A DNA stretch of 53,535 nt, filler included, from Jimgerdemannia flammicorona (taxonomy: Eukaryota): assembly GCA_003990765.1 (NCBI GenBank). It is 3 parts of 3 records of this genome, joined end to end, with 100 filler letters (N's around TTAATTAATTAA, not from the genome) between each part and the next. Parts side by side here need not be neighbours in the genome. Positions count along the whole stretch, not along the records: positions 17,883 to 35,664 come from RBNJ01002414.1; 2 more parts are not named here. One strand, written 5' to 3'. The notes under the pieces were generated by a model. That model made no database searches and had not been told where the DNA came from. It saw only the letters and a list, made by a program, of their open reading frames with translations. Made by a program: the position numbers and the translations under genes. The first letter of the stretch is position 1, and each line of letters begins with the position of its first letter. Positions 17,783 to 49,427 of the stretch are shown piece after piece.

Positions 17783-17882
17783 NNNNNNNNNNNNNNNNNN
17801 NNNNNNNNNNNNNNNNNNNNNNNNNNTTAATTAATTAANNNNNNNNNNNNNNNNNNNNNNNNNNNNNNNNNNNNNNNNNNNN
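17783..17882. other. Artificial contig linker N44-TTAATTAATTAA-N44
   Basis: Six-frame-stop 12-mer centred in Ns; identical to 35665-35764. Confidence 0.97.
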
Positions 17883-18202
17883 TGCGCTTCGCGCGGGGCT
17901 TAAAGTTCTTGGATCGGTTTTCTTAAATAAGTCATATTTGGCACCCCACTTGGCCTATCCTGGCCACCAAAATTATGACTCGGGACCATCGGCGAAATAA
18001 TCCTCAGTCGTGTTACAGGAGCGTGGAACCCTTAAAAGTTTGGTGCAGTGACCGAGTCGTAGCCATAGCGGTCATCTGACTTTGTTATCTACTCGATTGA
18101 CAACATTTGAGCGATTGCATCTTATTTCATTTTAGTGCTTGGTGACCACGCTTGTCGAGAATGCGTTTTGCGAAAGTCGTTTACGGTAAAGTCGGTTACG
18201 TT

Positions 18203-20986: not shown

Positions 20987-23900
20987 TACAAAAACTTGAT
21001 TGTAGATACAAATTGCTAAATAACTAGTTATTGATATATAATTAAATGTATAATTGAATATAAAGTATATAAAGTATCAGAATGTTCACCAGAGAAGTAA
21101 AGTGATACTTGAAGCAGGCATACTACTGAAACTCAAACTAACTAAGGTGGTGTGGGTACAGAGAAATAATTGAAACTAAGCTGAGCTATATGATTGTATA
21201 AATATTAAGTGAAAGATAGACTGCATGAATGTTAAGTAACTATGACCACTTTGCTACCATTTGAACTATGTTTATAACTATATTAAAGTTTCTTATATAT
21301 AGGAGTTATGGTGTGAAGATTGAAGTAGAAATATTTCTGTATAGAAAAGAGTCATATAAATATCTATCAGATATAGGTTTGGTAATAAGGAAGCATATGC
21401 TTCCAGAGGTCTACCAATTGTATTCATATGTAAAAAGGCCAAACCATAGGTCAAGAAGTGGATAAGGCTTCTAAATATAGTGCTGGTACTGCTGACCACT
21501 TGTCGATATCTTGTGATCACTACTTGCTAAACCCAAGATCTGCTAGTAATCAAGAAGGGGCATGGTAGCTAGAGTGATAGTTGTCTGAGACAGAATGTGA
21601 TTAAGTTATCAAATATAATACAAAAAGGCTAAGAACTTCTAGTGATCAGCTAACTAGATAATATGATCTAAGTAGCCCACTTTTATGAGTAGAGTGGTAC
21701 TACCAATATGAAAGAAATGGCTGTAAATTCTGGTAGCCAGAGTGGTACCTCCCAGAGGGTCTAAATGATATCAATGAATATTGAATGGAAAAGAAGTTGA
21801 GTTGGGCTAAAGCAAAAGATGGGATTGTGGGATTGAGTAGAATAAATGTAAACTATATTATCAATAGCTATGCAGGAGTAGTCAAAAGTACCTAAATATC
21901 TCAAGAATATATTACCAGAAGTACTCAACTTGGTATGAGGAAGATAGAGAGATCAGAATGGCTAAGAGAGAGTAGAGTCCCAGTACTGCCAAAGGTGTGA
22001 CCAGCAGACCTGCCATTGTGGATTAAAAGATAAATAGTTGGGGATGTGAGTTCACTGATATATATCAGGCCATAGAACACTATATATGTCATAGCCCACA
22101 TAGTAGCACTATAGGGTATATTAAGAGAGAGAGTAGTATGAATGAGATAGAGATATTGATAGATAATTGGGAGGCATTCAAGAGAGTATAAAGAGGAGGG
22201 TAAGTGGCTCTGGATTAATTTGAGGACAATGTCGAATAAAGGTAAAGAAGTACAATAGAGAGAGGGGCTATAATGGTGAGCCAATTGATAGATAGCAATG
22301 TTGTAAAAATAGTTCTTAATAGTAGTATATGGTTTCTTATCATTAGTCAGCCAAAGGGTCCAGTAGCTGAGAAGGTCATCATGGAGGGGAAAGGCAATAT
22401 TGTCATTAATGCTGTAAGTGCTTAAAAGTGGTAAAGGGAGTTGGTACCAGATTGGAGGGTACCTGTGCAGATGTAGGAATGTTGATAGAGACAGAACTTG
22501 AAGCAATAATGAAGCCAAAGAGAGATATTATCAACAATGAGAGCAGTTTCTGAGGATAAGTGGAGAGGTAGCATAGGTAAGAAAGGGGGTTAGCAGAATT
22601 AGATGCAGATGGAATATATTGAGCTTGAATGTCAAAATCTATTTGGAGATATAGTAGAGTAATGTAATATAAGAGGTCATTGACAAGAGGGTGGTATTAT
22701 GCCCTACTGCTAGTTAAAGATATAATACAGGACTGGCTATTACACTATAAGATAATATATTGTTTCTAAAAAGAGAAACCCTATAGTAAAAGTGAGACCC
22801 AGACTGTAAATATTTCTTTTCAGAAAATATCATATTCTGGCTGATTGCTAAATAATGTGACCCACTGAATATTCTATCAGTATTGATCAAAGAGGCCACC
22901 AGTACTAATTGTTCTGGAGGCATTTATAAATAGACTACAATTCTGTCAATTAGAGTGAAAAAGCAGGCAATGACCTGTTCAAGAGAATAGGACATCCTGC
23001 CACTATTAAAGATTAGTAATGAGATAAGAAGATAGATGATGCTGCCTGACATAGGGCAGTTTCTATGAGGAGATAAAATAAATAACAGAGTCACAAAATA
23101 CTTTCCCATCAGATAGGACCTGGGTGATATGTATAAGATGACCTAGTAGAGACTGGGCTTCATAATAGGACCTAGGGTATGGCTGGTGTATATGATGAGA
23201 TAGAGTAAGTCAGTCAGTCAGTAAGGTGAGAATGTAGGTATGCTTTTTATAAGAAAGGCCAATTGTTATATTTGGGACATCAAGAAGGAAGCCCACATAC
23301 TTGATAATTAGTATTGAAGATATGTTCTTGGCAACCTTAAGGAGAAGGCCAAAATGGATAATAATGGAGTGAAATTGCAAGTATGTAGACTGTGTTATAG
23401 TTGATGAAGCAATATAAATAAAGTCATCTACAAAATAACCCAAATTAGAAAGGTTATACAGATAAATACAGATCTATATGAATAAGTTTATTAGAGATAT
23501 AAATATGAATAGTGCTGAGTAAAGACTGAATGAGAGAAATATGTTAAAAAAGAAAAAGCTGAGCTAATAGATGCCTTGTATGGTCCAGTCAGACTGGTGT
23601 ACAGGAATCATGCAAAAGGCTTCAGTGATGTTACTCTTCTAGAAAAGAGTAGAGATACTTAGTGCTAATAGTATGTAGATAACTAACTGGATAGACTAAT
23701 ACTAAATAGAGAACTCTTTAGGGTTGATATTATTATTAATAGATGCTCCTTCTGAGAAGGACAGGTGTTAGATAGTGTGAAGTTTAGTAGAGTTCTTCTT
23801 TGAGATAATGCCTAAGAGAATGTTACAGAAGGGGTAAAACTTAGTAGATAATATTGATAGAGATAAAAAGAGGTCTAGATAATGACCTGCTTAGAGTTCA

Positions 23901-26292
23901 GTGAGGATGTTGGTTGAAAGAACTTTATGGTATTGGTAGGCTAAAGCCAATTTGTCTGATATATGATCAATGTAAAGCTCTGGGTGGGAATGGTTACTAT
24001 GAAAGTAGTCATAACATAGGCCAGCAAGATGATACTAAATGAGAGATTAATCTGAGTAGGCATAAAGTGCCTACTACCATTCTTGGATATTGTAAGGACT
24101 TTCTGGAGGGTTGGAAGATAGTGGGGTCATGAGATTAGCTGCAGTGGACAGTGCACTCTGTACCTGGATGAGAGCTATAGCAGAAAAGATAAATATGGGA
24201 GCAGTCACAATTAGTGCAGTAGTCTATACTATTATAGTTGTGATAGATGGAGGTAGTAGTGCTATCTGAGATGAGAGTAGTGCTCTAAATAAGTTGATCC
24301 AGATCAGATTCAAATCCCATCTGGATCAATTCAAATCAATCATTGTTTGATTTCCAAATTAGATAATTAAATGTTTATATTAATAACTTAATTAATAATC
24401 ATCCAATTTTGATAATCTTGATGTCATTTGAAAGCCCTTAATAAGGCCTTTTTAATAATATCAAGAACGTTAAAATTGGATCATGCATTGCTGAGTTATC
24501 AAAGAAAAACATCTGACTTGCTGATTTTGGAAATTTCTTCAAAACAACATTTTTTTTAATAACTCGGCAATACATAATCCGATTTTAATGTTCTTGGTAT
24601 CATTGGAAAGGCCTTACTAAGGGCTTTAAAATGACATCAATATCATCAAAATTGGATAATTATTCATTAAGTTATTGATGTAAACATTTAATTGTCTAAT
24701 TTGGAAATCAAAACAAAATTGATCTGAATAGAATTCAAATCCCATCCAAGTTGATCTAGATGGGATTCAATCTGAATCCAATCCAAATCCAATCCGGATT
24801 AAATTGACTTATTCAGAGCACTAGGTGAGAGTGTCTTCAGGTTTGATAGTGAACATAGATTGTAAAAGTGGGGTTTGGGTGCAAGTGGTCAATATATGTC
24901 CCCACACTCTGTACCAAAAGCACAATAGAGGATTGCAGAAGTTGTTCTGGGGCCCCTGATTGAGGGGGTGGATGCTAGAGCTGACCTATGTACTGGCTGA
25001 TAAGTAAATAGTACTAATGCTGGCTGACTAATAATAGTTTTGAATATGTATCAGACAGCATCTAGATTACTAATGTCAAGCTCTATAAAAGATGTCTTGA
25101 GGGTATGAACTTGTCTATCAAACCATTATAGAGCCATCTAGTCATATCAATCATTAATGGCCTTAATAATGAAGATATTATATATCAGTAGCTATATGGT
25201 ATATACTGTATAGATAGTAGTTTATATAATACAAAAGATCAGTAATATATTCCAAATTTTAAAGATAGTCTCCAACTAAAGCAATAAGTTGAGGTCATAG
25301 TCTGGTAAGTGAGAGTTAGGTTTCTGCTAAATGCTTGAATATGATAGCAGAACATTTCTAGTCCATTCAGCCAGGATTTGATATTCTCTTGCTTCAAGCA
25401 AAGTCAACAGCTCTAAGGGGACTCAGTCATGATGTAGAATGGTATCAGAGATGAATGAGAAAGTTGATAACTCATCATTAAGAGGATTTGAAGACCAGAA
25501 TAGTGAGGATACTACTGGAATTGGCAGCAATATGAATGGGATTGCCACTAAAGGATAGAATACTACTAGAAGGTAGGCTGAAGATAGTAGATTAGATAGT
25601 AGGGTTGGGAGGGTAACATTGGTACCCACAGTTATAGCAGTTAAGACAGGTGATCTATTAAGATGTACAGTCAGTGCAGAGAGTAATCATTTAATCAATA
25701 TGTCAACTACTTAGGCATTGGTGGGAGTTGTCAAAGCTGGTATCATAGGGTCTATAGTTAGAGGTTCAGGATCTGGTCTGTTGGTATCAAGATGTATAAC
25801 CAGAACAGCCTTCTGACTATCTATAGAAAGGTCATAATTGTGATAGAGTATAATTAGTTGATCCTTACATAGTGTTTGTAAGCCAGAAAGATTAGAAATT
25901 AATAGGCATATGTGTGAAGAACCAGATACTAGAGCTGGAGCAGAAGGCAGGTCTTGAGACTAACAGATAGGTGGTATATTGTTAGATAGAGTAGGTAAGT
26001 ACAAAAACTTAATTGTGAATACAAATTGCTAAATAACTAGTTGTTGGCATACAATTGAATATATAATTAAATATAAAATATATAAAGTACCAGAATGTTT
26101 ACCAGAAAAGTAAAGTGGCACTTAAAGTAGGTATACTACTGAAACTCAAACTAAGATGGTATGGGCATAGAGAAATAATTGAAACTAAGCTGAGCTGCAT
26201 GATTGTATAAATATTAAGTAAAAGATGGACTGTATGAATGTTAAGTAGCTATGATCACTTTGCTGCAGTTTGAACTATATTTATAACTATAT
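20987..26292 (-). mobile_element. Decayed Ngaro/DIRS-type tyrosine-recombinase retrotransposon (gag-like, RT/RH, YR) with ~300-bp direct repeats
   Basis: Direct repeats at 20987-21284 and 25998-26292. RT motifs YFVDDF (~23430), degenerate LPFGLRSAP (~23510-23540), KS(D)I..AF..IPV (~23600-23640), KK....R.I.HLS...SIN (~23730-23800). YR C-terminus SH(S)F(R)IG(GA)T...(GRW)KS.AF..YI at ~21610-21725. Confidence 0.85.
24278..24823. mobile_element. hAT-type non-autonomous palindromic MITE, copy 1, inserted in the Ngaro element
   Basis: Termini TAGTGCTC..AATAAG / CTTATT..GAGCACTA. 8-bp TSD GATGAGAG/GGTGAGAG. The body is a ~200-bp-arm inverted repeat. Confidence 0.88.
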
Positions 26293-27395
26293 ATTCTCTA
26301 TTATAATAATTAATAAATATATACAGTCTAATACTATATTATCTAATGCTGAATACTTGATATTATATGCAGTAAAAATATACATTCTATGACAACTATA
26401 CTCTTTATTTATTATAATGAAGTATTATTAATAGATGATATCCTATTATATATACTATTTTGCATAAATACTAATGAACTATATATAAATTTACAGCCAC
26501 TATGGTCCAGATTGTTACTTTACAGACAATATAATAATGCTAGTTCTGATAGTATAGTATATAGCTTAAGATGTGGCTATATCTAAAAAAAAAATTCAAG
26601 TATTATTGATAATAACAAAATAGAGTAAATACTATAAGATAAAGGAGAAAATAAAAACTTAAAAGACATTTTAATGATTATTAGCTTATAGTGTTGACTT
26701 TTCTGTTATATTATAAACTTGAAGTAGATAATTATTATATTTAGAGATTATTGTAATAAAAAAAAAAAAAAAAAAAAATAGTTGATATATTTGTCTATAG
26801 TCTGATACTATATAAGTTTTTGAAATTAATACAATAAAGTTAGTTTAATAAATAGTGATATAATCTCTTATAAACCTATATATCAAATTAAATAAGAGTA
26901 GTACAGATAAAATGAGAACAGTTATAAAATATTTAGTTGATTAATACTCTCTCTTGATATATATATTATCTTCTAATTGACTTATTACTGACTTACTACT
27001 TTGTACTCTATCTTTGATAGCTTATTGTATCTTATTGTAAAAAATTTAAAAAACAGTAGATTTGATCACTATTCTCTCTAGAAAACCTAATAATAAATTA
27101 TAGGATACTAGATTTCTCTTAAGCTCTATCTGAAGTTCTATAATAAATATTATTATTTATAGAAAAAATGGTAAAGAATTTCTATTTAATGACTCCTACT
27201 ATTTTTTCAACTATATATTGACTAACTGGACAAAATCAAAAGTTAGATTGTCAATAATCTTAGAGCAGAGATCTAAATATTAGTAATTATTTACTTATTG
27301 TAATGGTGACCCCAGAATGATGATATTAGCACAAGAGATAGTCTTTCCTTACAAGCCAGTAGATCAGAGCATAAGAAGATCATACGGTATATGAG

Positions 27396-28365
27396 ATGAG
27401 CAATGATGACCAATTGTGAGTCATTGTGACCATAGTTGAGTATCTTGAGAAATATAAAAGAAGGATCAAGGAACTGTAGTAGCAGCAACCAACAAGACCC
27501 ACTAATCCCAAAATAGCTCAAAGACTTACCACAAACAAAATATCTGCTACTTGCCAAACCTCAAGGTCAAGGAACCATCAAGGCATCTCAGTTAAAGAAA
27601 GGATGTTCCAAGACATCAGAAGAGCCATGAGGACCTGCTCCTAGTATCAACCTGGGTATTGGTGACCCTTATCATTATATTCTCTACTGCCATGAAATGG
27701 AAACAAGGATCACTATTACTACTGAATATCTCCAAATATAGCAGAAGTACAAAATAGAAAACCTCCTCTACCAAGAGTTCCCACAGGCCAGCACTCAAGA
27801 GCTATAAGATGCCACTTCCATAGATATATGTGAAACAAGGACAGCTAAGAAGATCCATCAGATCTTCAGGCATGTACCATAGTTGATCCCCAACTTGGAG
27901 TATGTTAGAGTCTCAGATTTCAGAGACCTATCATCTCACTGTATCAATGTACTAGAAGCCAGGGTGGCCACAGAAGCCCAGTCCACTATCACCCTTAATA
28001 GTGATGAAGTAGAAGACTTCTGGCATTCCATTCTCCAGAACAACTCAGATCAATTCCTGCAAGGATTGATCTCAGTATTCCAAGGCCCAAGTATCCAGAT
28101 TAGACCTCCCCAAGACCCCACATTTGTTCCCTATTTTGTGGAAGAGAACCTCATAGACTGGAGAGCTCCAGATATCCTTGTTCCTGCTGCTGCCACTGTT
28201 GAACATGATGATGTCATCTTACATGACATGAAAGTATATGAAACATGCAACCTATGTGATGACAATGACAAGACAGATGAGATGTTCATGGACCTCATCT
28301 CCTTCAAAGACATCCTGACCTCTGATGAGGATGAAGCCCTTATGGTCTTGAACATTCTGCTCTAA
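27396..28365 (+). pseudogene. LTR-encoded ORF of family B (about 320 codons in consensus)
   Basis: The open 160-aa C-terminal part (27883-28365) extends in frame through 27697 (METRITITTE...) across three TAG/TAA stops; the last two read CAA and TGG in the 50.9-kb copy. One small indel near 27636 links it to the MSNDDQL... frame from 27396. Confidence 0.72.
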
Positions 28366-28375
28366 GTCCTTTGGT

Positions 28376-28470
28376 TATACTGAATAATACCAGCACCGGC
28401 ATTTTGATATAACACTGAATAATGCCAGCATTGGCATTTTGATGTAACACTGAATTATACTAGTATCCTG
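28376..28470 (+). repeat. 35-bp tandem repeat (about 2.6 units) in LTR B, immediately after the ORF stop
   Basis: ACACTGAATAATRCCAGCAYYGGCATTTTGATRTA repeated. Confidence 0.85.
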
Positions 28471-29901
28471 AACCTGTACAACTATCAGTGCCAACTCTGG
28501 AACTTAGCAGTTTTTTCTGTCCTGGTATTTTATTTTAGTTATTGGAATTTATATTTAGCTTTATATCTTAGCAACCATTGAATTATATTTTGTATAAATA
28601 CCCCTCTTATTTCCTCTAAAATAAAGTCAGCCTATTCAGTTCTAGTTCACTTATACACAATCCCTTGCAAGCAATCTAAGAGATAATAAGACAGTTTAAA
28701 AGATAAGAAGTTTGAGGACTATAAGACCTTGGGAAGGTACTCCAATAAGAACTTGCTTATAACAAACTTGAGTTAGTCTAAGAGATACACCTTGAAGAGA
28801 ATCTGGCATATTTGAATGACTCAGCGACCACTATATGACATTATATAATCTATTGGAGTTTTTCTTAATAATTTTATATATATTATCTTTCAGTAGAACT
28901 TTTATAGTATATTACTAAAGAATAGTAATAAGGCAGACTCAGAAAATTATTATTTATTTATTTATTAGTAAAATATTCTAGTAAGAGATATTAATAATAG
29001 CTACAGTAATATACTTTAATAACAGATTTATCAAGTAATCTAGTAAGGCTAAGATTGATCAGAAGCAGATTATTTAAAATCTCAAAAATGATGTTTTTAG
29101 AATAGAGGTCATGATGGATATAATAGAATATATGAAGATTAGTAAGACAGTAGAAAAAATAGAAGAATAGTTATACAATAAGGTTTTAGTCATTTGAGTA
29201 ATAGGAAATAATACTTTTAAGAGTACTATGTAGAGTAAATTCAAATACTGTTAAGTATTGATAGTCTTTAGAATAGTGAGAGAGACTAATAAAACAAATA
29301 GTAGATTCTATATCATAAATAGTCAGATAAAAATTTAAGACTAACTATAAAAGTGAGTTTAAAATAAAAAGTAACAGTATAAGTAGGTTTGAAATAGAAT
29401 ATAATATTATAAGTAAGTATTAAATAAAAAGTAGTAGTATAAGTAGAAATAAGACAAAGTTAAATATAGTAATCTTATATATATATCTTAAAAGAGCAAA
29501 ACTCATATCTCTTTAATTTCACTATTCAATTCCTTAAGTATAAAGTATACTATAGTATTCTCAATATTGAAAGTAATAGTTCTTTTATATATCTGTAATG
29601 GTTTGTTACATACAAATCTGTCAAATTTATCTTATTATGCTAAACTGTACCTAATTAGGAAATTGCCAAAATTGTCTATATTATATGAGAACTTATATCT
29701 ATTTTGAATGAACATTTTAGCCTTTAAAAATTCTAACTAAAATTCCAATAGAAATTTTATTGGAAATTCTAATAAAATTCCAACTAATAGTTATAGATAT
29801 CTCATATAGTATAACTATATATAAATATATCCAGTATACTATATTTAGCCATAATCTTAAATATATATAAATATTCTCTATACTGAGTGTATTGTAACCT
29901 C

Positions 29902-31086
29902 CCCCCTTTCTCCGCTACCTTACTGGTCACAAGGTTTGGTAGGCGACTTCTGAGTTCCCTTTCCCCTATTATTACCCCCTCTACCTCAGGTTGGTTTGCT
30001 GTGCCTGCAGGGGCATGGTGGGAGGAGGGCGATGGTGATGAGTTGCCCCTTTATCGGTGTCAGATCGGTGCTTCCTCCACTTTTTCGCAGATTCTGGTGC
30101 CTTCAGCTGCGTCTGGGGTGTACCCGTTTTGGTGCAGTGCCTTCTTCCTTTTGCCGTCACCAACAAGGAGTTGTCTTGGTGTGTCTCGGGCTACGTGGGG
30201 AGTCGGCCGACCTTGGGCGTCAAGTGCTCAGTGTAGGTTACCTGCAGGTCCTCGGTGCCTGTGGTGGGGCCCTCTGGCTTTGGTGAGCTTCCCAGTGAGC
30301 GCGGTTCTGGTGTAGGTGACTGTTTTTCGGGTGTTGTCGGAATGGGAGGGGAGATGGCCATCACAGATAGGCGGAAGGGTGATAACGGTGAACCAGTAGG
30401 GTGCCAGGCTGGGGGCAGTCATCGGGGCTGGGGCGGGTGCTGCTTCGGTGGGGCCTTTTGATTGGCGCGGTGCGGTTAGGTGGTAGGTGTCACTCTTGGC
30501 TTCTTTGGGCGATTCGTGGGGTTGGGCCCCAGTCGTCTGGGGGGGTCAGGGGGGCCCGAGGCTACCCATTTCAGGCGTCTTGGCTACACTCAACTGGAAC
30601 TAGGAGCTGACACAGCAACATGATTGAGGTCCACAGGCTTGAGTAGTGGGATATTGGGGGTCTCCTCCCACCTCACGTATAAGTCCTCTACTCACCTTGA
30701 CTGGGAGAACCAGGCCCTATCCACCATGTTGTGCTTTGATGAGGGTTTTTTCTTTGCCTGTCATTCTCTTTGGGGTGGCAGGGGCTATTCTATTCAGCTT
30801 GGGCGTGGCCTTGTACATTCATTGGGTTCTTGGGCATATGCTTTCGGTCGTTGGTGTATGGCTGGGTTTCCCCTGGTGGTAGGGAGAGCATGGTGTGCAG
30901 AATGAGGTGCGGGCTATTTGCCCTGCTGCACCTGGCATGGTCGAGCCGCTGGACAATAGCTAGCCTAGGTTAATGGGGGGGCAGTGCTTGATGGGTGGTG
31001 GGGGAGGGTTTTGACCTATATAGTCTAGGTTCCCTTCCAATAAAAATCCGCGGGACATAGAGTCCGTTAAACAAAAAAAAAAAAAA
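29902..31086 (+). mobile_element. ~1.2-kb poly(A)-tailed non-autonomous retroposon, young copy
   Basis: 15-bp TSD GTGTATTGTAACCTC (29887-29901, 31087-31101), AATAAA at 31039, poly(A) tail, CpGs largely retained. Confidence 0.92.
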
Positions 31087-31424
31087 GTGTATTGTAACCT
31101 CAGTCTAAAAGCTAAAGAAAAGCTTAAAGCTCTTCTTTTCTCTAAATATAAGAATAAAGTAATATTCTTATCACAAAACCCTCAGATCTGATTTATTGAT
31201 TATTCTGAGTCTGATCAACTTGAGATACAAGTATAGTACTTTCAAGAAGTATAAAAACTCAAAAGTAATACCAAGACTCTGCTATAATAGATAACTAGAA
31301 CTTAGCACTTCCTCAAAAGAACTCAGAACTTAGGACTGATAGTTAGCTTGATTATCTACAATATATTAATTATATTAATATATTATTTTATTATAATATA
31401 TTTACAAAACTACTTTTATAAATT

Positions 31425-32078
31425 AAGTTAAAGTTTATAAACTGATTTGTTGAGATTTAGACAATATAGTCCATAAGCTCTGAGAGTCTCAGCTAGCCAA
31501 AATACTATTAAAGAGTATGAGTTCAGAAAATAAACTTTGTAATAATAGATATATATATACTATTGTAGAACTAGCCAGACTTTTGAATAATGGAAGAAAG
31601 TTCAGTAGTGAAGTTTGGTGATGAAGTTTGGCCATTTTGAGATAAAGAAATAATATACAAAATAAATTATAACTACTAGTCTTTAATGATATATATAACT
31701 ACTAGTTCTCAATAGAGTAGTATAATAAGATAACTATTTTTTTTCTAAATTAGTACTGTGCTACTTCCAATTTGAATTAGAGAATGTAAAACTTAATGTC
31801 ACCTTTTGAAAAGAGTTTTTATTCCTTTCATTCTTTCTATCTTTCACTTTTTCTCACTTTTTTCTTTTATTTTTCTTCTTTCTTATCTTAAAATTATTAC
31901 TACTAGACCACCTCTCATTACTTAAAACTCTGAATAAATATAATAGTATATATCTGTCATTATAAAGATTGTTTCTCAGATTCCAATGTTCTATAACAGT
32001 ATCTTAGCTGGCTGAGAGTTCCAGAGCTTACAGACTATATTTTCTAGATCTTACCAAACTAGTTTACAAACTTTCACT
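31425..32078. repeat. Foldback element: ~140-bp inverted arms (31425-31566 and 31940-32078)
   Basis: ATATAGTCCATAAGCTCTGAGAGTCTCAGCTAGCCAAAATACT pairs with AGTATCTTAGCTGGCTGAGAGTTCCAGAGCTTACAGACTATAT. Confidence 0.75.
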
Positions 32079-32288
32079 TTTCAATGAGATAGTTTTACCA
32101 AGAAACCATTGCAGAATATTGAGGAGTATTTCACTTTCAAGAAATTGAATAGAAATATAAAGGAGTTATAATTTTTACACTTTCAAATTACATGCAAAAT
32201 TATTATGTTCAACTTTATTTTATTTCAACTCATACTGACAATAGTTGGTCCTAAACATCTGTCTGACTACTAATGATATAGATACTGC

Positions 32289-32901
32289 TAGTGCTCCAAA
32301 TAAGCTGATCCAGATCAGATTCTAATCCCATCTGGATCAACTTGGATGGGAAAATAAGTTGATCTAGATCAATTCAAATCAACCATTGTTTTGATTTCCA
32401 AATTAGACAATTAAATGCTTACATCAATAACTTGATGAATAATCATCCAATTTTGATAATCTTGGTGCCATTTAAAAGCCCTTAATTAGGCCTTTCTAAT
32501 GATATTAAGAATATTGAAATTGGATTATGTGTTACTGAGTTATCAAGGAAAATGTCCGACTTGCCAATTTTGGAAATTATTCAACTTGCCAATTTTGGAA
32601 ATTTCTTCAAAAGATGTTTTCCTTAATAGCTTGGCGATGCATAATCTGATTTTTAATATTCTTAGTATCATTTGAAAGGCCTTATTAAGGGCTTTCAAAT
32701 GACACCAAGATTATCAAAATTAGATAATTATTCATCAAGCTATTGATGTAAACATTTAATTATCTAATTTGGAAATCAAAACAATGGTTGATTTGAATCA
32801 ATCCAGATTAACTTATTTTTCTATCTGAGTTGATCTGGATGGAATTCAATCCAAATCAATCCAAATCCAATCTGGATTAAATTGACTTATTTGGAGTACT
32901 A
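32289..32901. mobile_element. hAT-type palindromic MITE, copy 2
   Basis: Same termini and body as 24278-24823. 8-bp TSD GATACTGC/GGTACTGT (two transitions). Confidence 0.88.
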
Positions 32902-33125
32902 GGTACTGTTATCTCCCTAATTAGTCTCTCTCAATATTCTATCACTCACTGTTACTTAATAGTATTCAAATTTGCTCTATACAGTATCCTAGAATTCATA
33001 ATTTTGGACAATTTCAACAACTGAAACCTTATTATACAGATATTTTCTATCTCTCACACTGCCTAGCAAATATTCATATATTTAGCTATATTCACTATAA
33101 TCTCTAACTTAGAAATATTATTCTC

Positions 33126-34332
33126 CAGACTCCTTTCTCTACTATCTTACCAGTCATAAGGTTTGGTAGGTAACCTTCCAAGTCTCCATTTCCCTATTAT
33201 TATCCCCTCTATCTCAGGTTGGTTTGCTATGCCTATAGGAGTATAGTGAGAGGAGGGCAATGGTGATAAGTTGTCCTTTTATCAGTATCAGATCAGTGTC
33301 TTCTCCACTATTTTGTAGATTCTGGTGCCTTCAGCTGCATCTGAGATATACCTGTTTGGTACAGTGCCTTCTTCCTTTTACTATTACCAACAAGATGTTG
33401 TCTTAAAGTATCATGGATTACATAGAAAGTCAGCCAACCTTGGGCATCAAGTGCCCAGTGTAGGTTACCTACAGGTCCTTGATACCTGTAGTAGAGTCCT
33501 CTGGCTTTGGTGAGCTTCTTGGCAAGTATAGTTCTGGTGTAGGTGACTGTTTCTCAGGTATTGTTGAGATGAGAGGGGAGATGGCCATCACAGATAGAAG
33601 GAAGGGTAATAATGGTGAACTAGTAGAGTACCAGGCTGGGGGTAGTCATCAGGGCTGGGGTAGGTACTGCTTTGGTGGGGCCTTTGATTGGTACAGAGTA
33701 GTTAGGTAGTAGGTGTCACTCTTAGCTTCTTTTGGTGATACATGGGGTTGGGCCCTGGTTATTGAGAGGGGTCAGGGGGCCCAAGGCTACTTATTTCAGG
33801 CATCTTGGCTACACTCAACTAGAACTGAGAGCTGACATAGAAACATGATCAAGGCCCATAGACTTGAGTAGTGGGGTATTGGGGGTTTTCTCTCATCTCA
33901 TATATAAGTCTTCTACTTATCTCATTTGAGAGAACCAGGTCCTATCTACTGTGATGTACTTTGATGAGAGTTTTTTCTTTATCTATTATTCTCCTTAGAG
34001 TGGCAGGAGCTATTCTATTCAGCTTGAGTATGGTCTTGTATATACATTGGAATTTCAGGCATGTGCTTTCAGTCATTATTATATGGCTGAGTTCTCTCTG
34101 GTGGTAGAGAGAGTATAGTATACAGAATGAGGTATAGGCCATTATAGGCCCTGCTGCACCTAGTATAGTTGAGCTGCTGGACAATAGTTAGCTTAAATTA
34201 ATAAGAGAAAAGTGCTTGATGGGTAGTGGGGGAGGGTTTTGGCCTATATAGTCTAGGTTCCCTTCTAATAAAAATATGCAGGACTCTGAGTCTATAAAAC
34301 AAAAACAAAAATAAAAAAATAAAAAAAAAAAA
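33126..34332 (+). mobile_element. ~1.2-kb poly(A) retroposon, hypermutated copy
   Basis: Colinear end to end with 29902-31086. 16-bp TSD TAGAAATATTATTCTC (33110-33125, 34333-34348). Confidence 0.92.
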
Positions 34333-35664
34333 TAGAAATATTATTCTCAAGTCTTCACACCCCCTACTCCTAATTGATCTTGGCCTTACTATATCTTTTG
34401 ATAAGCCTGTTATCTAATTTGGATGCTGTAGCTACTATTGTAAATATCTTCTACTGAAATTTTTTACCAATAAACTACAAATATCAGCAGAGGACATATA
34501 TTACTATATTACCATTTTTTATCATTATACTATAGATATCCTACAGAAAGGTGGTACATTTATAGCTATTGTCAAAAACCCAGATAGATTATATGAGTAA
34601 ATGATTTCTGAAGTATTGCTTGAGTTTATAGTTCTGCTTTAAGAATGTTGGTAACCTGACCATCACTTGTGCCTATCTATACAAAAGGTCAATGTATGGT
34701 TGAAGAAATAGTGGAGGTTGTTCAAAGGAATTTCTATGCTATTTTCATTATAAATAGTAGTATTCATTATGGAACTTTGAGTAGAGCTTGAGAAGGATTC
34801 AGTACTATGTAATTCATTATAAAGTTTCATAAAGATAGGATTGATTGGACATTTCATAACTATATCTATTTCTCCTGTGCTGTTCTTTCAAATTTCAGTA
34901 TTTGGACTCACAAAACATTATATCATTATATATTAAATAAACTACATTGTATTGATATTAAGAATTTATTTATGCTGTGAGACCTTTTACAAATATATTG
35001 GTTTTTTATTATTTTATTTTATTTTATTTTATTTTAAATCACAGAATTTAAGAATTTTCTAGTTTAAATATATTATGATAGATATGATTCAGTAACAATT
35101 TAAATGTACCTTACGGGTTCATTCCCTCCTTGTCCAAAGGTATATGTACCACATTTTATTTTTTTTGTCATTATCAATAACACTCAGATGCAAAATGTCA
35201 TTGTAATGACCATCTCGGAAGCAATTATTTGAACAATGGTGGCTGCAAATACACATGCATTTGTCAATATTTATGTAGAATGCCACACATGGCGAGGCCA
35301 TTGTGCATTACCATATCGCAATAAACGAGCGTGTGCATGGTGTATTTAACTGTCGCAGGGCGATTTTTATGGCAACAAATGTTAGCATTGACTAATGTGG
35401 TGGCAGGCTGAAATGGTGCCAGGATGCTTATATTCATTACATTACTTGTGGCGTTCGCGACGCTAAAGTATTTCCATCACGTCGTGTAAATATAATTGTT
35501 AATAAAATACATCTTGTTGACTTCGACATGGACAAACCAAATATTGCATTCGCGTCATGACGTCACCTTCCGCACATCCGCAAATACCGAAGACATGAAT
35601 TGGCGTACGTTTAATTGAGTGACATTTTATATCCTAATTCAGTTGCAACAACTGATAAAAAAAA

Positions 35665-35764
35665 NNNNNNNNNNNNNNNNNNNNNNNNNNNNNNNNNNNN
35701 NNNNNNNNTTAATTAATTAANNNNNNNNNNNNNNNNNNNNNNNNNNNNNNNNNNNNNNNNNNNN
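35665..35764. other. Artificial contig linker N44-TTAATTAATTAA-N44
   Basis: Same as 17783-17882. Confidence 0.97.
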
Positions 35765-38700
35765 TTTTTTTATAGTCACTTAGACTGCAACTTTATTATT
35801 ACTATTATAATAACAATTAACTATGAACTACTACTAACATAATATATATAGGAAGGATTGCTCAGCCAACTCCTTTCTTCTACCTAACCCCATGATCATC
35901 TAACACCAGGTGCCCTCATCTCTGCTATATAATATCCTGCATCTTCTTTAAGGCCTCTGGTTGAAGCTGCTTTCTCTGATACTACCACCCCTATACTACC
36001 TCCTGGAGAAGCCACCTCTACTACTCCACTAACTCTCCGATTCCCATCCATAGGTCCTGCTCAAATATCCATCATCAATGTACTGCCATCAGAACCTAGA
36101 TCCCTAAGACCTAACCTAGGCCTCCCCAGATATCACCAATCTCTCCCACCAGCTGGTGCTTGACCACCAGACTGACTGGATTCCTAGATCTTCAACCCCC
36201 AGGGTCCCAGTAATCTTCAAAACTCTACCAAAACCCTTTAACCCTAGGACAGGCTACCAGAACATGCTCTGGTATCTGAACCATCCCTCCATCTACCTCA
36301 CTGCACTACTTGCAGTCCCAACAACTATCTACCTCCATCCAGCCTATCCTATAACCCAGCATCACATTTTTTCTCAAGAATCACTACCAAACTACCTAGT
36401 ACTTAGGGGGCACTACCTTGAGCAAAGAGGCTCCCCAACTTCAGATTCGGCCCCACTCTCAGTCTTTACCAAATCCTGCTCTCTGCCAACCAGCTGGCCA
36501 TCTCTCCAGAGGGCTAGACCTGATCCACTCCATTGCCTCAACCAGTGAGTACTCCTTCAAACTATGGCCACCAATGCAGAGTTTTCTCAGTCACCACCAT
36601 CTCTACTCTAGGTTCACACCAACCTCTATCTCTGGTCCTACTAACCTCATGGCCAGCCAGGCCTCTACAATGCCCCACCAGAACCCCTTAAACTGCAGTC
36701 TACCTATATTTCCAATCTGAAGCAGACCCTGCATATCCTTCCAAACCTCACCATAGAGGCAGAACAAACCTCCCAATTGTCTATGGCTAGTCTGCCCCAA
36801 CCCTCCTCACCTAGTACTACTAGGTGACACCCCTACCAACCCTGAAGTACCTTCAGCTAGCATCTGAAGTCCACTAACCCCAGGTCTCCATCAACTATCC
36901 TCATCACCACTGTGTCCCACCTGATCTGTGACCACTTTCTATTTTACAACTATCCTTCTATAATCTTCTTCAGCCACTGTACCACCCACTCTAGAAAATC
37001 CAGGTGATATTCTAGATACCACAATTTGAGCAACCAATATATATTCAAAATCACTATCCTACCTACCAAGGAGAAGCTCCTCCCTGACCAACCAGTCAAA
37101 GTATCTTCCAACTTCTGAATCAATCCACACTACCACTTCTTCAGCAGAACTGTTCTATATACTGAGAACCAAATATCCAGATACTGAATAGCACTTCCTG
37201 GGGCCACCAATTGTCCAAATTGTCCATGTACCCCCAGACTAGCACTAAGTTCCATTGTCTCACATTTGCCCCAATTCAACTTAGCCCCTGCCAGCCTATC
37301 AAACTGTCCAACCTCTTCCTGTAGGAGGTCCACATCCTCCATACTACCCAACCCTACCACTATGTCATCTGTGAAAGCACCTAGCTTCCAGACCACATTA
37401 TCTATTTATAGTCCAGTAAGCCATCTCTTTAGCCATACCAGCAAAGGCTCTAAAAAGAGTACATAGAGGAGGGGGGAGAGAGGGTCTCTCTGTGGTACAC
37501 CTTGCTCCAAGGCAAACTCCAGTCTACTTTATCCATTCATCATAACTGCTGCTCAGCATCTCTATACTAGGCTCATCAATTGCTCTGCCTCTGCTACACC
37601 AAACCCTACCCTCTTCAGAACAGTCTCCAAATAACTCCACCACACTCTGTCATAGGCCTTCTTTTAATCAAGAAAGACCATCTGGCCATCTACCTACCAG
37701 CTCCTACAGCCCTCCAAGACATTCTGCATTCAAGCAGTACTATCTCTGATCTATCTCCCCTTGATAAAGCCTCACTGCTCTTTCCCAACTAGCACACTAA
37801 TATACTGCTGCATCCTCACTACCAAAATATTTAAGACCAGCTTTCTATCTATATTCAGCAGCATGATAGGTTACCAATTATGCCACACTCATCGATCTCC
37901 CTTTTCCTTATATAGAAGGGAAACTAATTCCAAGGAATCATAACCGATCTAGCTGCCCTCCTTCAAAATGAAGTTAGCCATCTCCACCAACCAGCCACCA
38001 AACTCTGTCTGGAACTCCTTCCAGAATTTCCAGAGCAACCCATCCTCCCCAGGTGATGAGCCAGTTTGTGTCTTTCTCAATATCTCCAAGACCTCATCTA
38101 ATGATACCTCTCTTATGACCATCTTACCTATCTCAGATAATGCTATTACTGGCCAATTATTCACCATATTGTCATTGTCCTCCCAAAGTACTGTATCCTC
38201 AGCATTGTCCCCACCATCCTGCAAGAGAGCCTGTCATTGTCCCGATATCTCTCCCAATATATCCACAATCTCTGAGATCTTTACTCTATCTTCACACAAT
38301 ACTGAGGCCCAGCTATGTCATACTCTCCTGGCCTTCAAAATACCAGACAGATATTTAGTCAGCCTCTCTCCTTCTTCCAGCTATCTAGCCTGCAATCTGG
38401 CTAGCAGGCCATCTACCACCCTGTTCTCAGATATCCTCAAGTCTGTCTACAACTCTGCCACCTCTACTATCAACTGGTAGTATACCTCTCCAGACAAGTT
38501 TCCCTCTTCTAATAACTTCAATTGCCATTATAGCCTCTGCTCCACTCTCCTTTCCTTGTCCTTCTGCTCCTTTCCAGCCACTTCTCCAACATCATGCCAG
38601 TAAGTACCTGCCAAATGTTTGAATTTACCCCACCATTCTACTATCAACTGCCCATCATTCTGCCATTGTGCAATCTCCTGTCTTGTAACTGCCACAAATT

Positions 38701-41400
38701 GCTCTCTCTCCTTCTTCCTTCTGAGTAAGGCCACATTGAGATGCCAATGCCCTCTACCACTGCCTGCTGTTTGGAATCTACCACACATCTCTACTCCCTA
38801 GTAATCAGACCAAGAGCACCAATGTACCTCTGTAATGTCCAGCATATTGCCCCAGCACTCAGCTACTAACACCTAATCTATTCACATCTCAACCAATCTA
38901 TTACCAACTGGGTGCTACTGGGTAAAGGACCCTGACTTATCCCTCTGATGCTAATAAATACCATCCACCAATCCTATGTCATGCTCCACCTGAAGCCATT
39001 AAGATAGACCAGAGGACATTGCTACTTCTGCTCCACCATTAGACCTATCCATTGTTTGATCATGCACCATATTAAAGTCTCCCCCCAGAATGTCCAAAGC
39101 AACTACCTTCCAACCTTCTTAAGCTTGCCAGCTCTCAATCTATTGCTTTCGCTCTCTGCCAACTGTAGGGAGGTAAACTGAGCCTACTGCAAAACCATTA
39201 TCTGCCCCTTCTTTTAGTCTTCCCCATACCAGTCTGTTACCATAGACCACTACCTCCACTTTGCCTATACTAACCAAGATGCCCACCTGCTTATTCCAAC
39301 CTACCCCACTGTATCATTCTTTACTCCACACCTCATAGTCTTGCTCCCCATAAGCTCAAATGTCCTGAAGAAAAACAATATCATATCTCCTGACTTTAAG
39401 CTATCAGAATAGCTACCATCTCTTAACCCTATCATGCAATCTATTGACATTGATTGATAAAATATATAAACTGTTCATCATCATTAAAGAAATTGTTTAA
39501 AGCATAGCTGGGACTGCCACACCCTTCTCAGCCCTTCCTCTAATGATCTCTTACTGGTTCTCACAAATTGCCCTCCTGATACAATCACCATTCACACTGT
39601 TGCAGAAAAGATCCACTCTTAAAGCTGTTATCTTTCTGATGTCTGCCATTCTGCTCTTATCAACTTCATATCCTTCATCATCCAGAAGAGCTGCCACAAT
39701 TGCCATCACCAGCTTGGGCCCCTATATTGTAACATTGAGAAATACTTCTCATACCTTGTGAGATCCATGAAAAATGTCCACTTCCTTGATATCTTCCTCC
39801 ACAAGTTCCTCAAGTACTACCTGATACTAGTTCTCTGCCATTATTGCCAAAGGCCCAGGAGTCGATGGTCTAGGGGTCCTGCTTAACTCTTGCAGCTGCT
39901 CTCTGTCTGCTGACACATCAGAGGCCACATCCATCAGCTCATCCTCCTCTGCAACCTTCTCCAAATGTACCACTTCCCCAGCCTCAGGGCACTCCCAATG
40001 AATATTTGCCACCTCAGTTATATGGGTGTCCTCCATCTGAGTCTCTGGTACTACTTCAATAATATCCTCAAAGTCCCCCTCTCTCACCTCCTCCTTATCT
40101 GCCCACTTTTCTCTCATTGGTACATACTCTGAGCTTTTCACACTACCCAGCTGGGAGAAGGACACCTCGATAGCTTCAACCCCTTCCATCTGATTCTTGA
40201 CCACCTCTGTTCTCATCTTCTCTTCCAATACTACCCCTTGAAGAGCTGCCTGCAGATGCTCTCCATTTCCTTTCCTCTACCTTCTGCCTGCCATTAGCTT
40301 GAATCCAGACCCAATCCTTGGCAAACTCTTCCCACTTCCTCTTTCACAGCTCCTTGGCAGCCTCTCTCTCCTCTAGAGTAATTGCCAGCTCTTCCTTCTC
40401 CTGTTTGGCTCCTTTCCTCCTCCACACCTTGCACTCTTGTCCTCTAATCTGAATCCCCTCTGGCCAATCCTGTCTCAGCCCTATTGCCTCCTTGCCTTCC
40501 AGTTACAGCATCACCTCACAGTTGCCATTCCTCAGTTTGGTGCCCTCTCAAAACATGAATCTGAAATCCACCATCTCACCATAGCTCTCCAGTGCCTCTA
40601 CCATTATTGTCTTAGTCTCCTGTCTGTCCAGTATTGGCAGGCCTTCTACTACCAGCCATATAGCACACAGGTCCCACCTCAAACACCTCATCATCCCAAT
40701 CCCGATACCCTTAACAGTCAGCTCTTTCTCCAGTGCCTTCATCATTGTCTCCTCTTCCACAAATCCAATCTCCACTGCCTCCACCAATAGGATAAACTTC
40801 AAGAACTCTGCCTCAGCCACATTATCCCCCACCAGTCTCAGAACCTCCCTAGCTAACATTGCCAATCCCAGGAAGTTCACTGAAACTGCCCATATTGACA
40901 CCAACTTGTAAAAGAAGAGCTGCACTACTAGCTTACCTGTCTCAGCCACCAGAGTCACCTTCTCTTTTGTTCCGGAGATACCAGTGGTCACTCCACCAGC
41001 CATAGCTGTACCACCAGTAGTCCTCTCCCCAGCCACCAGCCTAGCCCCAGAATAACCAGTCTCCAATATCATACCACCAGACCCCTGCCCCCTGCTGGAC
41101 ACCTGACCTGTTACCTGACCCATCACCTGACCCCTCCCCCTATCAATACTATGCCCCCCCTGCCCCACTCCCAAAGGCCTGGCTGTAGCCCTCCTGCTCC
41201 CTACTACAGTATGCCAGACCTTGATTCCACCAGACCTCCCCTGACCACTAGTCCCTCCAGTAGCCATACTAGCCCCTGCAGCAGCTACAAAGCTCTTGGG
41301 AAGGTCCAGACCAGGCCTCCTCCTCTCCAGATGCTTAGAGCTAGAGGAACCTTAACTAGCCATATCACCAAAACTTGATGGTTTTTGCTGAAACTTATTG
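35765..41400 (-). mobile_element. Near full-length L1/Tx1-like LINE: ORF1 ~41267-39484, ORF2 (APE+RT) 39478-~35870, poly(A); many premature stops
   Basis: ORF2 starts MNSLYILSINVN. DILGGDFN near 39070-39095, GRGHWHLN, SPGEDGL, GVPQRDPLSPLLY near 37460-37500, AFTDDIVV, GAKLNWGKCE. Tail AATAAA...AGTCTAAGTGACTATA(A)n at the contig start. 5' end approximate. Confidence 0.9.
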
Positions 41401-41534
41401 TGCCTTATAGATAGACTCCTGCTGCATGATGTACACTAGTGTATTTGAAATAAAAACTTGAAAATATATTGTCTTTCACTGAAAGATGTCTGTGTGGCTT
41501 AGCTTGCTCTGAGTAGTTTGAGCAAAAGAAGTCT

Positions 41535-49425: not shown

Positions 49426-49427
<2 letters not shown>

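Follow-up and report, generated by a model that had tools for sequence, protein, structure and literature searches.

In Neurospora crassa and other Pezizomycotina, RIP destroys transposons by C:G to T:A transitions, favors CpA among the non-CpG sites and leaves AT-rich relics beside intact genes. A RIP-like transition bias also occurs in transposons of a non-ascomycete group, the Pucciniomycotina, as TpCpG hypermutation that is CpG-centered with a 5' T. CpG decay in vertebrates, and in basidiomycetes with DNMT1 and DNMT5, leaves CpG-normal gene islands among CpG-depleted repeats and turns CpG into TpG and CpA. The vertebrate CpG O/E is about 0.2.

RID-1 is described in PMC9963178 as confined to Pezizomycotina, while DIM-2-like homologues occur in Endogonales; the Jimgerdemannia flammicorona proteins among the rows listed in its Dataset S1 are DIM2-class only (JGI 471264, 479070 and 483080). 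According to bioRxiv 10.1101/115501, RIP can also be mediated by DIM-2, in which case CpA is strongly preferred and the process spreads into neighboring single-copy DNA. In Zymoseptoria tritici, an ascomycete that also has RID, dim2 is reported to promote mitotic C>T changes in repeats (PMC8016269). The Dim2-dependent transposon 5mC follows the order CG > CA > CC with almost no CT (PMC8016269, legend of Fig 3D), and more than 98% of the dim2-dependent mutations fall at CpA, CpG being methylated yet not highly mutated (PMC8016269). A 2026 review credits early-diverging fungi with near-undetectable 5mC (PMC13297926). R. irregularis transposons have bimodal CpG methylation in a study that called CpG only, and so is silent on non-CpG sites, and that states that the RIP signature was not detected in Mucoromycotina (PMC8647823). 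RIP-like mutagenesis is limited to Ascomycota according to PMC12543289 (abstract and section 9). A literature search that covered few subscription journals turned up no earlier account of such decay in Endogonales or Mucoromycota, whether RIP-like or at non-CpG sites.

The DNA analyzed here, referred to as the window, consists of 53.5 kb from three contigs of J. flammicorona (Endogonales, Mucoromycota), an early-diverging soil fungus for whose 231-Mb genome a repeat content of 73% is reported. The host is therefore of the kind that the initial annotation had supposed, and ordinary RIP in an ascomycete, which that annotation offered as a way in which its reading could fail, does not apply. The features are collected in Table 1.

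Table 1. Coordinates and composition of features along the window.
Feature	Position	Strand	Description
Genic island, Kelch-repeat gene	1-6867		45% GC, 372 CpG, O/E 1.07; spared
Fully decayed block	6868-17782		10.9 kb, 32% GC, 0 CpG vs 260 expected
LTR a	8569-9208	+	LTR-type element, contig piece 1; 0 CpG
LTR b	11004-11639	+	sister of LTR a
Genic island, MIR-domain gene	17883-20012		45% GC, 109 CpG, O/E 1.01
Repeat block	20013-29886		LTR element, MITE-like hairpin, other relics; 32% GC, 9 CpG, O/E 0.037
LTR of second element	20984-21283	+	partner at 25997-26292
Partner LTR of 20984-21283	25997-26292	+	
Copy A 5' target-site duplication	29887-29901		GTGTATTGTAACCTC; read directly; same as 31087-31101
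Copy A	29902-31086	+	young poly-A retroposon; 56% GC, 42 CpG, O/E 0.47
Copy A tail	31073-31086		14-A
Copy A 3' target-site duplication	31087-31101		15/15 match to 5' duplication
Copy B 5' target-site duplication	33110-33125		TAGAAATATTATTCTC; intact
Copy B	33126-34332	+	old decayed copy of the copy A retroposon; 42% GC, 0 CpG
Copy B tail			A-rich, interrupted
Copy B 3' target-site duplication	34333-34348		16/16 match to 5' duplication
CpG-normal end	35114-35664		contig piece 2; 23 CpG, O/E 1.13
Retroelement relic, intermediate stage	35765-44429		43% GC, CpG O/E 0.031
Reverse-transcriptase remnant	37133-37405	-	within 35765-44429
Younger repeat block	44430-49199		44% GC, 50 CpG remaining
LTR c	44885-45521	+	contig piece 3; same family as a and b, less decayed
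Reverse-transcriptase remnant	47238-47489	-	within 44430-49199
Decayed block	49200-53535		32% GC, 0 CpG vs 112 expected

The window is bipartite. Three genic islands have a CpG O/E of 1.01 to 1.13, five other blocks have values of 0.000-0.037, and the edges between islands and blocks are sharp. A Pfam search of 83 stop-to-stop ORFs recovered the Kelch domains and the two reverse-transcriptase remnants; matches to ATG5_HBR and RIX1 were weak and likely due to chance. An Atlas search with the MIR-domain ORF (18858-19163) returned MIR-domain clusters of mixed taxa, and the ORF had no homologues in the 'longer' length class. Within the first island, 11 ORFs of positions 4000-6867 gave no Pfam match. 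Island stretches with no recognizable coding sequence have 43-47% GC, a TpA O/E of 0.59-0.80 and a CA/TG O/E of about 1.0-1.1; because these values are kept in such stretches, the CpA bias described below is specific to the decayed compartment and is not genome-wide. The stages of decay can be ordered by age, from copy A through the younger repeat block (44430-49199) and the relic at 35765-44429, where CpG is gone and CA/TG are left, to the fully decayed block at 6868-17782. At 36001-41000, CA/TG were still undepleted, with an O/E of 1.13-1.33. Standard RIP indices were mostly negative, and the composite index was positive only at 6868-17782 (+0.23) and in copy B (+0.12). If a steady state is assumed, the complete loss of CpG implies that CpG is lost about 500 times as fast as reverse transitions occur.

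The two strings that the initial annotation quoted as evidence of RIP-like hypermutation between two retroposon copies are both present, and the pattern is confirmed over the whole length of the copies. A global alignment of A and B spans 1207 columns, with 953 identical positions and 226 substitutions. Read from A to B, these are 106 G>A, 73 C>T, 15 T>C, 8 A>G and 24 transversions, so that at 179 of the 226 sites copy B has T for a C of copy A, or A for a G (direction excess 178 vs 23, binomial p=1e-23). All 42 CpG of copy A are lost from copy B, which has 115 TpA against 45 in copy A, in agreement with the proposed elimination of CpG and the conversion of CpA/TpG to TpA. The loss per cytosine depended on the 3' neighbor: 54/84 (0.64) at CpG, 63/175 (0.36) at CpA, 49/243 (0.20) at CpC, where some changes had also been claimed, and 12/154 (0.08) at CpT. 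The difference between CpA and CpT was highly significant (Fisher OR 6.7, p=5e-10). Copy A is itself partly decayed, since among the matches listed (40 rows), 8 of the 23 sites with T/A in A and C/G in B were C/G in soil contigs. The suggestion that target-site duplications and LTR termini were mutated as well, the latter from TG to TA, was not upheld; the duplications of both copies are intact and LTRs a, b and c all start with TG. Copy A has no recognizable ORF (3 tested, no Pfam match), and neither copy had a match in the Pfam search of 83 ORFs. An Rfam search of 29000-35000 returned only two matches, both below the gathering score and inside the MITE-like hairpin, with none in copy A, which is not recognizable as a tRNA-, 5S- or 7SL-derived SINE.

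The LTR family provided an independent comparison in which the direction of change could be assigned, with LTR c as the outgroup that polarized changes in LTRs a and b, and a change was counted only when the ancestral state of the 3' base could be inferred too. Over 636 aligned bases, LTRs a and b are separated by 101 transitions and 11 transversions. Polarized C>T changes were found at 40/105 CpA (0.38), 11/54 CpC (0.20) and 17/158 CpT (0.11), with an OR of 5.1 for CpA vs CpT (p=2e-7), whereas reverse A/T>G/C transitions amounted to 21/665 (0.032). Because C>T at ancestral CpA exceeds that at CpT, the gain of TpA is not explained by two-step decay of CpG, the other way in which the hypermutation reading could have failed. 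Pooling the LTRs with the A to B losses gave 54/84 for CG, 95/261 for CA, 56/285 for CC and 25/267 for CT, that is, rates of 0.64, 0.36, 0.20 and 0.09. CpA (OR 5.5, p=5e-14) and CpC (OR 2.4, p=7e-4) both stood above CpT, so the decay is not confined to CpG, and the order CpA > CpC > CpT was also seen in each LTR lineage pooled.

The other repeats of the window behave similarly. In the LTR pair of the second element, 33 transitions stand against 2 transversions. The two LTRs of a single element thus differ in both cases, which places the changes after insertion. Transitions outnumber transversions in all nine repeat pairs, from 24:15 to 33:2. The top contexts were always CpG and CpA and the lowest was CpC or CpT, these two exchanging ranks in 7 of the 18 directional comparisons. 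At about 200 nt, the MITE-like arms lost CpA at similar rates.

Within the repeats of the window, the context analysis that had been proposed showed that the 3' neighbor sets the rate, in the order CpG > CpA > CpC > CpT. The 3' base changed the rate 4- to 7-fold and the 5' base at most 1.8-fold (NCA 0.26-0.48). This dominance of the 3' base is suggestive of methyltransferase-like recognition. Symmetric CHG targeting was rejected because CAG was changed at 0.29 and CTG at 0.07. By 5' base, CpG was lost at 11/21 TCG, 13/15 ACG and 18/26 CCG. TCG is therefore not above the others, and this fact, together with the decay of non-CpG cytosines, distinguishes the locus from the Pucciniomycotina, with which it shares the transition bias. 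The strands were equally affected from A to B, with 73/262 C (27.9%) and 105/394 G (26.6%) changed. The strand clustering that the initial annotation had advised looking for was absent: the 178 changes from A to B fell in 90 runs (P=0.57; null 0.499 +/- 0.036 runs per change) and the longest same-strand run was 8, against 8.7 under the null. All that this test rules out is a small number of heavy events on one strand; many light cycles of RIP would look alike and escape it.

The locus thus resembles RIP in that repeats change almost only from C:G to T:A, CpA is favored among the non-CpG sites and AT-rich relics lie beside intact genes. However, it differs in that the host belongs to Endogonales, for which PMC9963178 reports no RID, CpG and not CpA is the fastest class, strand tracts are absent, young near-identical copies persist and RIP indices are mostly negative. 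CpG decay systems share the CpG-normal gene islands within depleted repeats and the products TpG and CpA, but depletion here is total (O/E 0.00-0.04) and the non-CpG cytosines also decay in a fixed order.

Deposition of 5mC in several contexts by a DNA methyltransferase, followed by deamination in heterochromatin, would account for the C>T decay of the transposons and is probably the correct explanation. The initial annotation had left the choice between a RIP-like process and dense multi-context 5mC. The latter, with deamination, is favored by the lack of strand tracts, the age-graded decay, the many copies of at least 95% identity and the lack of a reported RID, and homology-triggered RIP seems less likely. 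The spectrum of the changes, their contexts, strand symmetry and timing after insertion, the compartment limits and the host are read directly from the data, while the methylation, the enzyme and the chromatin state are inferred with the help of the literature. The non-genic, transposon-derived part of the genome would be a cytosine-methylated heterochromatin compartment, in which methylated C would change to T in place, after insertion and on both strands, at a rate that depends on the 3' neighbor of the C: CpG far above CpA, then CpC, then CpT near background. Fresh insertions, of which copy A is an example, would arrive GC-rich, lose all CpG and next CpA and CpC, and end as relics of 25-32% GC, with the genes untouched. 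The most likely writers would be the three DIM-2-like BAH-domain DNA methyltransferases listed for J. flammicorona, which would act on CpG and non-CpG sites in H3K9-methylated chromatin, and deamination of 5mC, spontaneous or enzyme-promoted, would fix the change. The tempo would be one of slow, continuous decay with no homology-triggered premeiotic burst.

The rates observed here follow the order CG > CA > CC >> CT of Z. tritici methylation as given in PMC8016269. The transposon- and heterochromatin-limited action of the dim2 mitotic mutator, for which meiosis is unneeded and a DIM-2-class enzyme is available, also has its counterpart in the confinement of the decay to the transposon compartment, with the genes spared. 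The analogy is inexact, because CpG is the fastest class here; it is eliminated and CpC is clearly affected, whereas the Z. tritici mutations are nearly all at CpA and CpG is little mutated. CpG may be served by a maintenance system of its own. For methylation followed by deamination to hold, the generalization of near-absent 5mC in early-diverging fungi, as worded in PMC13297926, would have to fail in Endogonales. The 500-fold CpG loss rate is high for passive deamination. This rate and the fixed CpA > CpC > CpT order would fit an enzyme-driven process, and it is tentatively possible that Endogonales have an ancient, RID-independent C>T mutator of the DIM-2 type that is coupled to heterochromatin and is not passive. 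If this were true, Dikarya would be younger than the heterochromatin branch of RIP, and RID-dependent, homology-triggered RIP would be a later ascomycete addition.

An alternative is a homology-triggered, repeat-induced C>T mutator that works in the sexual cycle independently of RID, weakly and over many cycles, perhaps along the lines of the Neurospora heterochromatin branch of RIP (DIM-2, DIM-5 and HP1). The purely C:G to T:A changes, the preference for CpA among non-CpG sites and the fact that every testable mutated segment is a repeat would agree with it, as would a CpG loss that seems far faster than usual passive decay, the DIM2-class genes listed for J. flammicorona (PMC9963178) and the reported ability of DIM-2 to mediate CpA-preferring RIP (bioRxiv 10.1101/115501). 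However, such a mutator is unlikely in view of the absent strand tracts from A to B and of copy A, which retains its 42 CpG with copy B (80% alike) only 2 kb away. Near-identical copies evidently coexist, since of 1980 contig pieces of soil run X1, 806 were at least 95% like copy A, 213 of them at 99% or more and the other 593 at 95-99%. The MITE-like arms, about 200 nt long, decay at similar CpA rates. Moreover, in supplement file 13 of the kingdom-wide screen PMC12543289, AT-rich words are enriched in J. flammicorona non-coding DNA (TATA 4.0x), but annotated repeats have 0.76x the level of non-coding DNA overall.

Another proposal is that only CpG is methylated and lost, and that CpA > CpC > CpT is a general AT-biased context spectrum visible in unconstrained DNA. 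The loss of CpG is by far the strongest signal, the CpT rate of 0.08-0.11 is about three times the reverse rate of 0.032, as ordinary AT bias would give, and the bimodal methylation of R. irregularis transposons concerns CpG in a study that did not call non-CpG sites (PMC8647823). This proposal is nevertheless improbable, as CpA is changed 5 to 6 times as often as CpT where the ancestral context is controlled, and the island stretches with no recognizable coding sequence, by keeping their GC and CA/TG, mark the bias as compartment-specific. Hypermutation of retroelements from C to T and G to A would also be the expected product of an AID/APOBEC-like cytidine deaminase editing retroelement cDNA or genomic DNA. 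AID/APOBEC enzymes read 5' bases. Here the specificity lies in the 3' neighbor and neither 5' specificity nor strand bias was found, C and G being equally affected where cDNA editing would mark a single strand. Furthermore, the divergence of the LTR pairs dates from after integration, and hairpin elements that lack poly-A are affected too, so that editing is highly improbable. A sequencing or assembly artifact was ruled out, as the pattern tracks element boundaries, target-site duplications and age, and UV-type dipyrimidine damage was ruled out by the effect of the 3' neighbor.

Strong, context-ordered and compartment-limited C>T decay of transposons is therefore present in Endogonales, a group outside the ascomycetes to which surveys, in the sections cited above, restrict the RIP-like pattern. 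Screens based on indices or words would miss it, because decayed CpG refills CA/TG and the relics in which decay is most advanced are no longer annotated as repeats. Three questions can now be tested: whether a DIM-2 route to cytosine mutation is older than RID, whether Endogonales carry non-CpG cytosine methylation, and how so thorough a mutating defense allows a 231-Mb repeat-filled genome.

Further retroposon copies were sought in JGI metagenome contigs with a 56-nt R/Y-degenerate pattern, which gave no matches. Two loci found there with a 33-nt pattern (L001 and L002) had no blastn similarity to the retroposon and were treated as chance. Words of the retroposon were present in soil metagenomes of 12 studies (20 runs), with shares of 0.04-0.30.

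Copies A and B, the young and the old, decayed copy, derive from separate insertions of a single poly-A retroposon, both in the middle contig piece. No Pfam-recognisable ORF was found in either copy by Pfam search, and neither matched in the Rfam search. Their alignment comprised 1207 columns with 226 substitutions, which from A to B were 106 G>A, 73 C>T, 15 T>C, 8 A>G and 24 transversions, a directional excess of 178 vs 23 (p=1e-23). The GC content fell from 55.9% to 41.7%, TpA rose from 45 to 115 and CpG went from 42 to 0, the 42 CpGs of copy A appearing in copy B as 17 CA, 13 TA, 11 TG and 1 AG. The loss per cytosine depended on the 3' neighbour: 54/84 at CpG, 63/175 at CpA, 49/243 at CpC and 12/154 at CpT (CpA vs CpT, OR 6.7, p=5e-10; CpC vs CpT, OR 3.0, p=9e-4). 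These alignment counts bear out the core of the initial annotation, which had described C>T/G>A hypermutation not confined to CpG. Its statement that target-site duplications (TSDs) and LTR termini were mutated too was not borne out at copies A and B, where intact TSDs flank both insertions (15/15 and 16/16 positions, respectively). The pattern is genuine, has strong statistical support and is shared by every repeat of the window.

Coordinates of the features discussed, with CpG counts where blocks were compared
Feature	Position	Strand	CpG observed	CpG expected
Kelch-repeat ORF	1456-2127
Block	6868-17782		0	260
LTR pair of a single element (sister LTRs)	8569-9208 and 11004-11639
MIR-domain protein gene, second gene of the window	18414-19400
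Block	20013-29901		9	246
LTR pair of a single element	20984-21283 and 25997-26292
MITE-like hairpin elements, one family	24326-24732 and 32324-32846
Retroposon copy A	29902-31086
Retroposon copy B	33126-34332
Block	35765-44429		10	321
Reverse-transcriptase remnant, weak	37133-37405	minus
Third, less decayed LTR of the sister-LTR family	44885-45521
Reverse-transcriptase remnant, better match	47238-47489	minus
Block	49200-53535		0	112

The two strands were hit alike, with changes at 73/262 cytosines and 105/394 guanines. Same-strand clustering was absent, the 178 changes forming 90 runs (P=0.57, runs test) with a longest same-strand run of 8 vs 8.7 expected. Of the 12 bins of 100 bp, 11 had a mutated fraction of 0.21-0.37 and the 3'-terminal one 0.14. 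The 3' neighbour affected the rate 4- to 7-fold and the 5' neighbour at most 1.8-fold; the CpA loss by 5' base was 0.42 for ACA, 0.36 for CCA, 0.48 for GCA and 0.26 for TCA. DNA cytosine methyltransferases choose their sites by the 3' neighbour of the cytosine, AID/APOBEC deaminases by the 5' bases. Symmetric CHG targeting was also considered and is ruled out by the loss at CAG (0.29) vs CTG (0.07).

The direction of change was examined with contigs of four soil-metagenome runs (X1 to X4), aligned to copy A at a likeness of at least 80%. Many positions at which copy A has T or A are C or G in nearly all of the soil contigs; copy A itself is partly decayed. Among the variants listed, at least 8 of the 23 apparent A/B reverse transitions had C or G in the soil contigs. 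The true reverse rate is therefore lower still. Relative to copy A, the contig variants were 55 C>T, 63 G>A, 26 T>C, 27 A>G and 15 transversions in X1, and 67 C>T, 81 G>A, 30 T>C, 27 A>G and 24 transversions in X4. Across 12 studies, 20 soil-metagenome runs contained words of the copy A element (29888-31102). In X1 their summed depth was in the thousands, and 1980 contig pieces aligned to copy A. Over the four runs aligned, the copy A family is very abundant and recently active in some soils.

A concern in such comparisons is that a CA/TA difference between two copies might go back to an ancestral CG. Changes in the sister LTRs were polarised with the third, less decayed copy, which lies on another contig, and sites were counted at which the ancestral cytosine and the ancestral 3' base were each supported by the other two LTR sequences. 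The initial annotation had raised a scenario in which the TpA excess is fully explained by two-step decay of CpG plus background mutation; this fails, since lineage-specific C>T reached 40/105 at CpA vs 17/158 at CpT (OR 5.1, p=2e-7). The corresponding count at CpC was 11/54, while A/T>G/C transitions numbered 21/665 and transversions at A/T sites 4. The polarised fractions are close to the A to B values, although the LTR family is unrelated to the retroposon. The pooled C>T rates were 0.64 for CG, 0.36 for CA, 0.20 for CC and 0.09 for CT (CA vs CT, p=5e-14).

Self-comparison of the window gave nine repeat pairs, and transitions exceeded transversions in all nine (274:36, 150:20, 201:24, 228:83, 101:11, 65:13, 40:11, 24:15 and 33:2). 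In every pair CpG and CpA were hit most and CpC or CpT least, the CpC and CpT ranks being exchanged in 7/18 directional comparisons, mostly of small samples. Both LTR pairs showed 12-18% divergence, almost all of it transitions. As the LTRs of an element are identical at integration, this divergence arose in place after insertion. The arms of the MITE-like hairpins, inverted and 183 and 196 nt long, show 86-89% complementarity, and most differences between them are transitions (24:15 and 40:11). A Chlorobi-RRM Rfam match in one hairpin scored 32.6 bits vs a cutoff of 45 and is probably due to chance.

The decay is confined to a compartment. Genic islands of about 10 kb in all (blocks 1-7000, 17883-20100 and 34900-35664) hold 506/620 of the window's CpGs, with an observed/expected ratio (O/E) of 1.07 in 1-6867, 1.01 in 17883-20012 and 1.13 in 35114-35664, and their borders with the decayed blocks, for example at 6867/6868 and 20012/20013, are sharp. 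Outside the islands the window is nearly devoid of CpG. Long island stretches without recognisable coding sequence still have 43-47% GC and low TpA, indicating that the bias is a property of the compartment rather than of the genome at large. The decayed sequence can be arranged in stages: copy A, with a CpG O/E of 0.47; 44430-49199, with 50 CpG left; 35765-44429, where CpG is gone and the CA/TG O/E is still 1.13-1.33; and 6868-17782 with similar blocks, at 24-32% GC and with CA/TG down to 0.57. This order indicates an early, fast loss of CpG, followed by that of CpA and CpC. Given 1492 CA and TG sites able to regenerate CpG in 15.25 kb with zero CpG, and equilibrium being assumed, the CpG loss rate would be, as a rough steady-state estimate, at least ~500 times the reverse-transition rate. 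If G:T mismatch repair (TDG, MBD4 or UNG homologues) were lost, a rate this extreme would need no active deaminase. Retroelement relics retain a very strong GC skew (+0.43 to +0.52 in 14001-17782 and -0.39 to -0.48 in 36001-44000); a skew that outlasts decay is expected if cytosine loss rates are equal on both strands.

The best-supported reading of these sequence patterns is that cytosines of the transposon compartment would be methylated in CpG and non-CpG contexts specified by a methyltransferase, and that 5mC would be converted to T continuously after insertion. PMC9963178 reports homologues resembling DIM-2 in Endogonales and Glomeromycota, and its Dataset S1 assigns to the DIM2 class three J. 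flammicorona proteins (JGI 471264, 479070 and 483080) that carry BAH and C-5 methyltransferase domains; these are candidates for the methylation step. In Zymoseptoria tritici, as described in PMC8016269, Dim2-dependent 5mC of transposons occurs at CG, then CA, then CC, with almost no CT, which is the rank order of the mutation rates found here, and a functional dim2 raises repeat C>T during mitotic growth. The parallel does not extend to CpG, which in that account carries methylation without being highly mutated, whereas it is the fastest class in the window. A 2026 review describes 5mC as near-undetectable in early-diverging fungi (PMC13297926), so the methylation reading needs Endogonales to be an exception.

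The alternative is that homology-triggered RIP produces the changes. RID-1 is reported in PMC9963178 only from Pezizomycotina, and RID is unreported from the host in the literature; according to bioRxiv 10.1101/115501, Neurospora DIM-2 can mediate a heterochromatin-dependent RIP branch. Against RIP, strand tracts are absent, copy A is nearly intact 2 kb from the 80%-alike copy B, 806/1980 X1 contig pieces reach a likeness of 95% or more to copy A, and hairpin arms of ~200 nt show similar CpA rates. None of these points settles the matter, as a weak RIP-like process acting lightly over many cycles would leave the same picture. The initial annotation had posed the choice as a RIP-like process or dense multi-context 5mC: the outcome is RIP-like, while in anatomy the process behaves like a methylation-type, context-ordered, compartment-wide decay.

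The RIP indices TpA/ApT and (CpA+TpG)/(ApC+GpT) were mostly negative across the window despite the alignment-based CpA bias, because decaying CpG refills CA and TG; the composite index was positive for 6868-17782 (+0.23) and copy B (+0.12) only. A survey of such genomes that relies on indices alone may thus yield false negatives. J. flammicorona (231 Mb, 35,354 sequences, 73% repeats) is among the genomes of the word screen that Badet and Croll ran across the kingdom (PMC12543289). In the values given there, AT-rich words are more frequent in non-coding than in coding sequence (TATA 4.0x), with a lower frequency in annotated repeats than across non-coding sequence as a whole (0.76-0.81x), and by the rule of that screen the species is not RIP-like. 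This fits the window, in which the recognisable repeats are young copies that are still GC-rich, and the relics at the furthest stage of decay have ceased to be identified as repeats. RIP signatures are stated to be absent in Mucoromycotina in PMC8647823, citing Venice et al. 2020. A prior report of the signature in Endogonales or other Mucoromycota was not found in a search that covered few subscription journals.

The initial annotation's supposition of an early-diverging fungal host agrees with the matches of the Kelch-repeat ORF: the host is J. flammicorona (Endogonales, Mucoromycota), and an ascomycete is ruled out. The first homologue search returned protein matches only from J. flammicorona, at 54-65% identity. 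A second search gave a J. flammicorona hypothetical protein (P0004, 'near' length class) with 97% identity over 69% of the query and an Endogone sp. protein with 51% identity. The MIR-domain gene added nothing on taxonomy. Within the Kelch-repeat gene, a tandem repeat at 3423-3523 (18-nt unit, 4 listed copies) codes for a Ser/Thr/Pro-rich stretch preceding a hydrophobic segment. A run of ~55 T lies at 4598-4655 in the CpG-normal genic block. The artificial linkers at 17783-17882 and 35665-35764 (44 N, TTAATTAATTAA, 44 N) join three ~17.78-kb contigs; as the pieces are separate contigs, a feature in one is not physically linked to a feature in another. In the third piece, a 42-A run at 49384-49425 terminates a repeat, and the 3' end preceding it is like that of copy B (repeat family D9), which hints that the retroposon shares its tail with a longer element.
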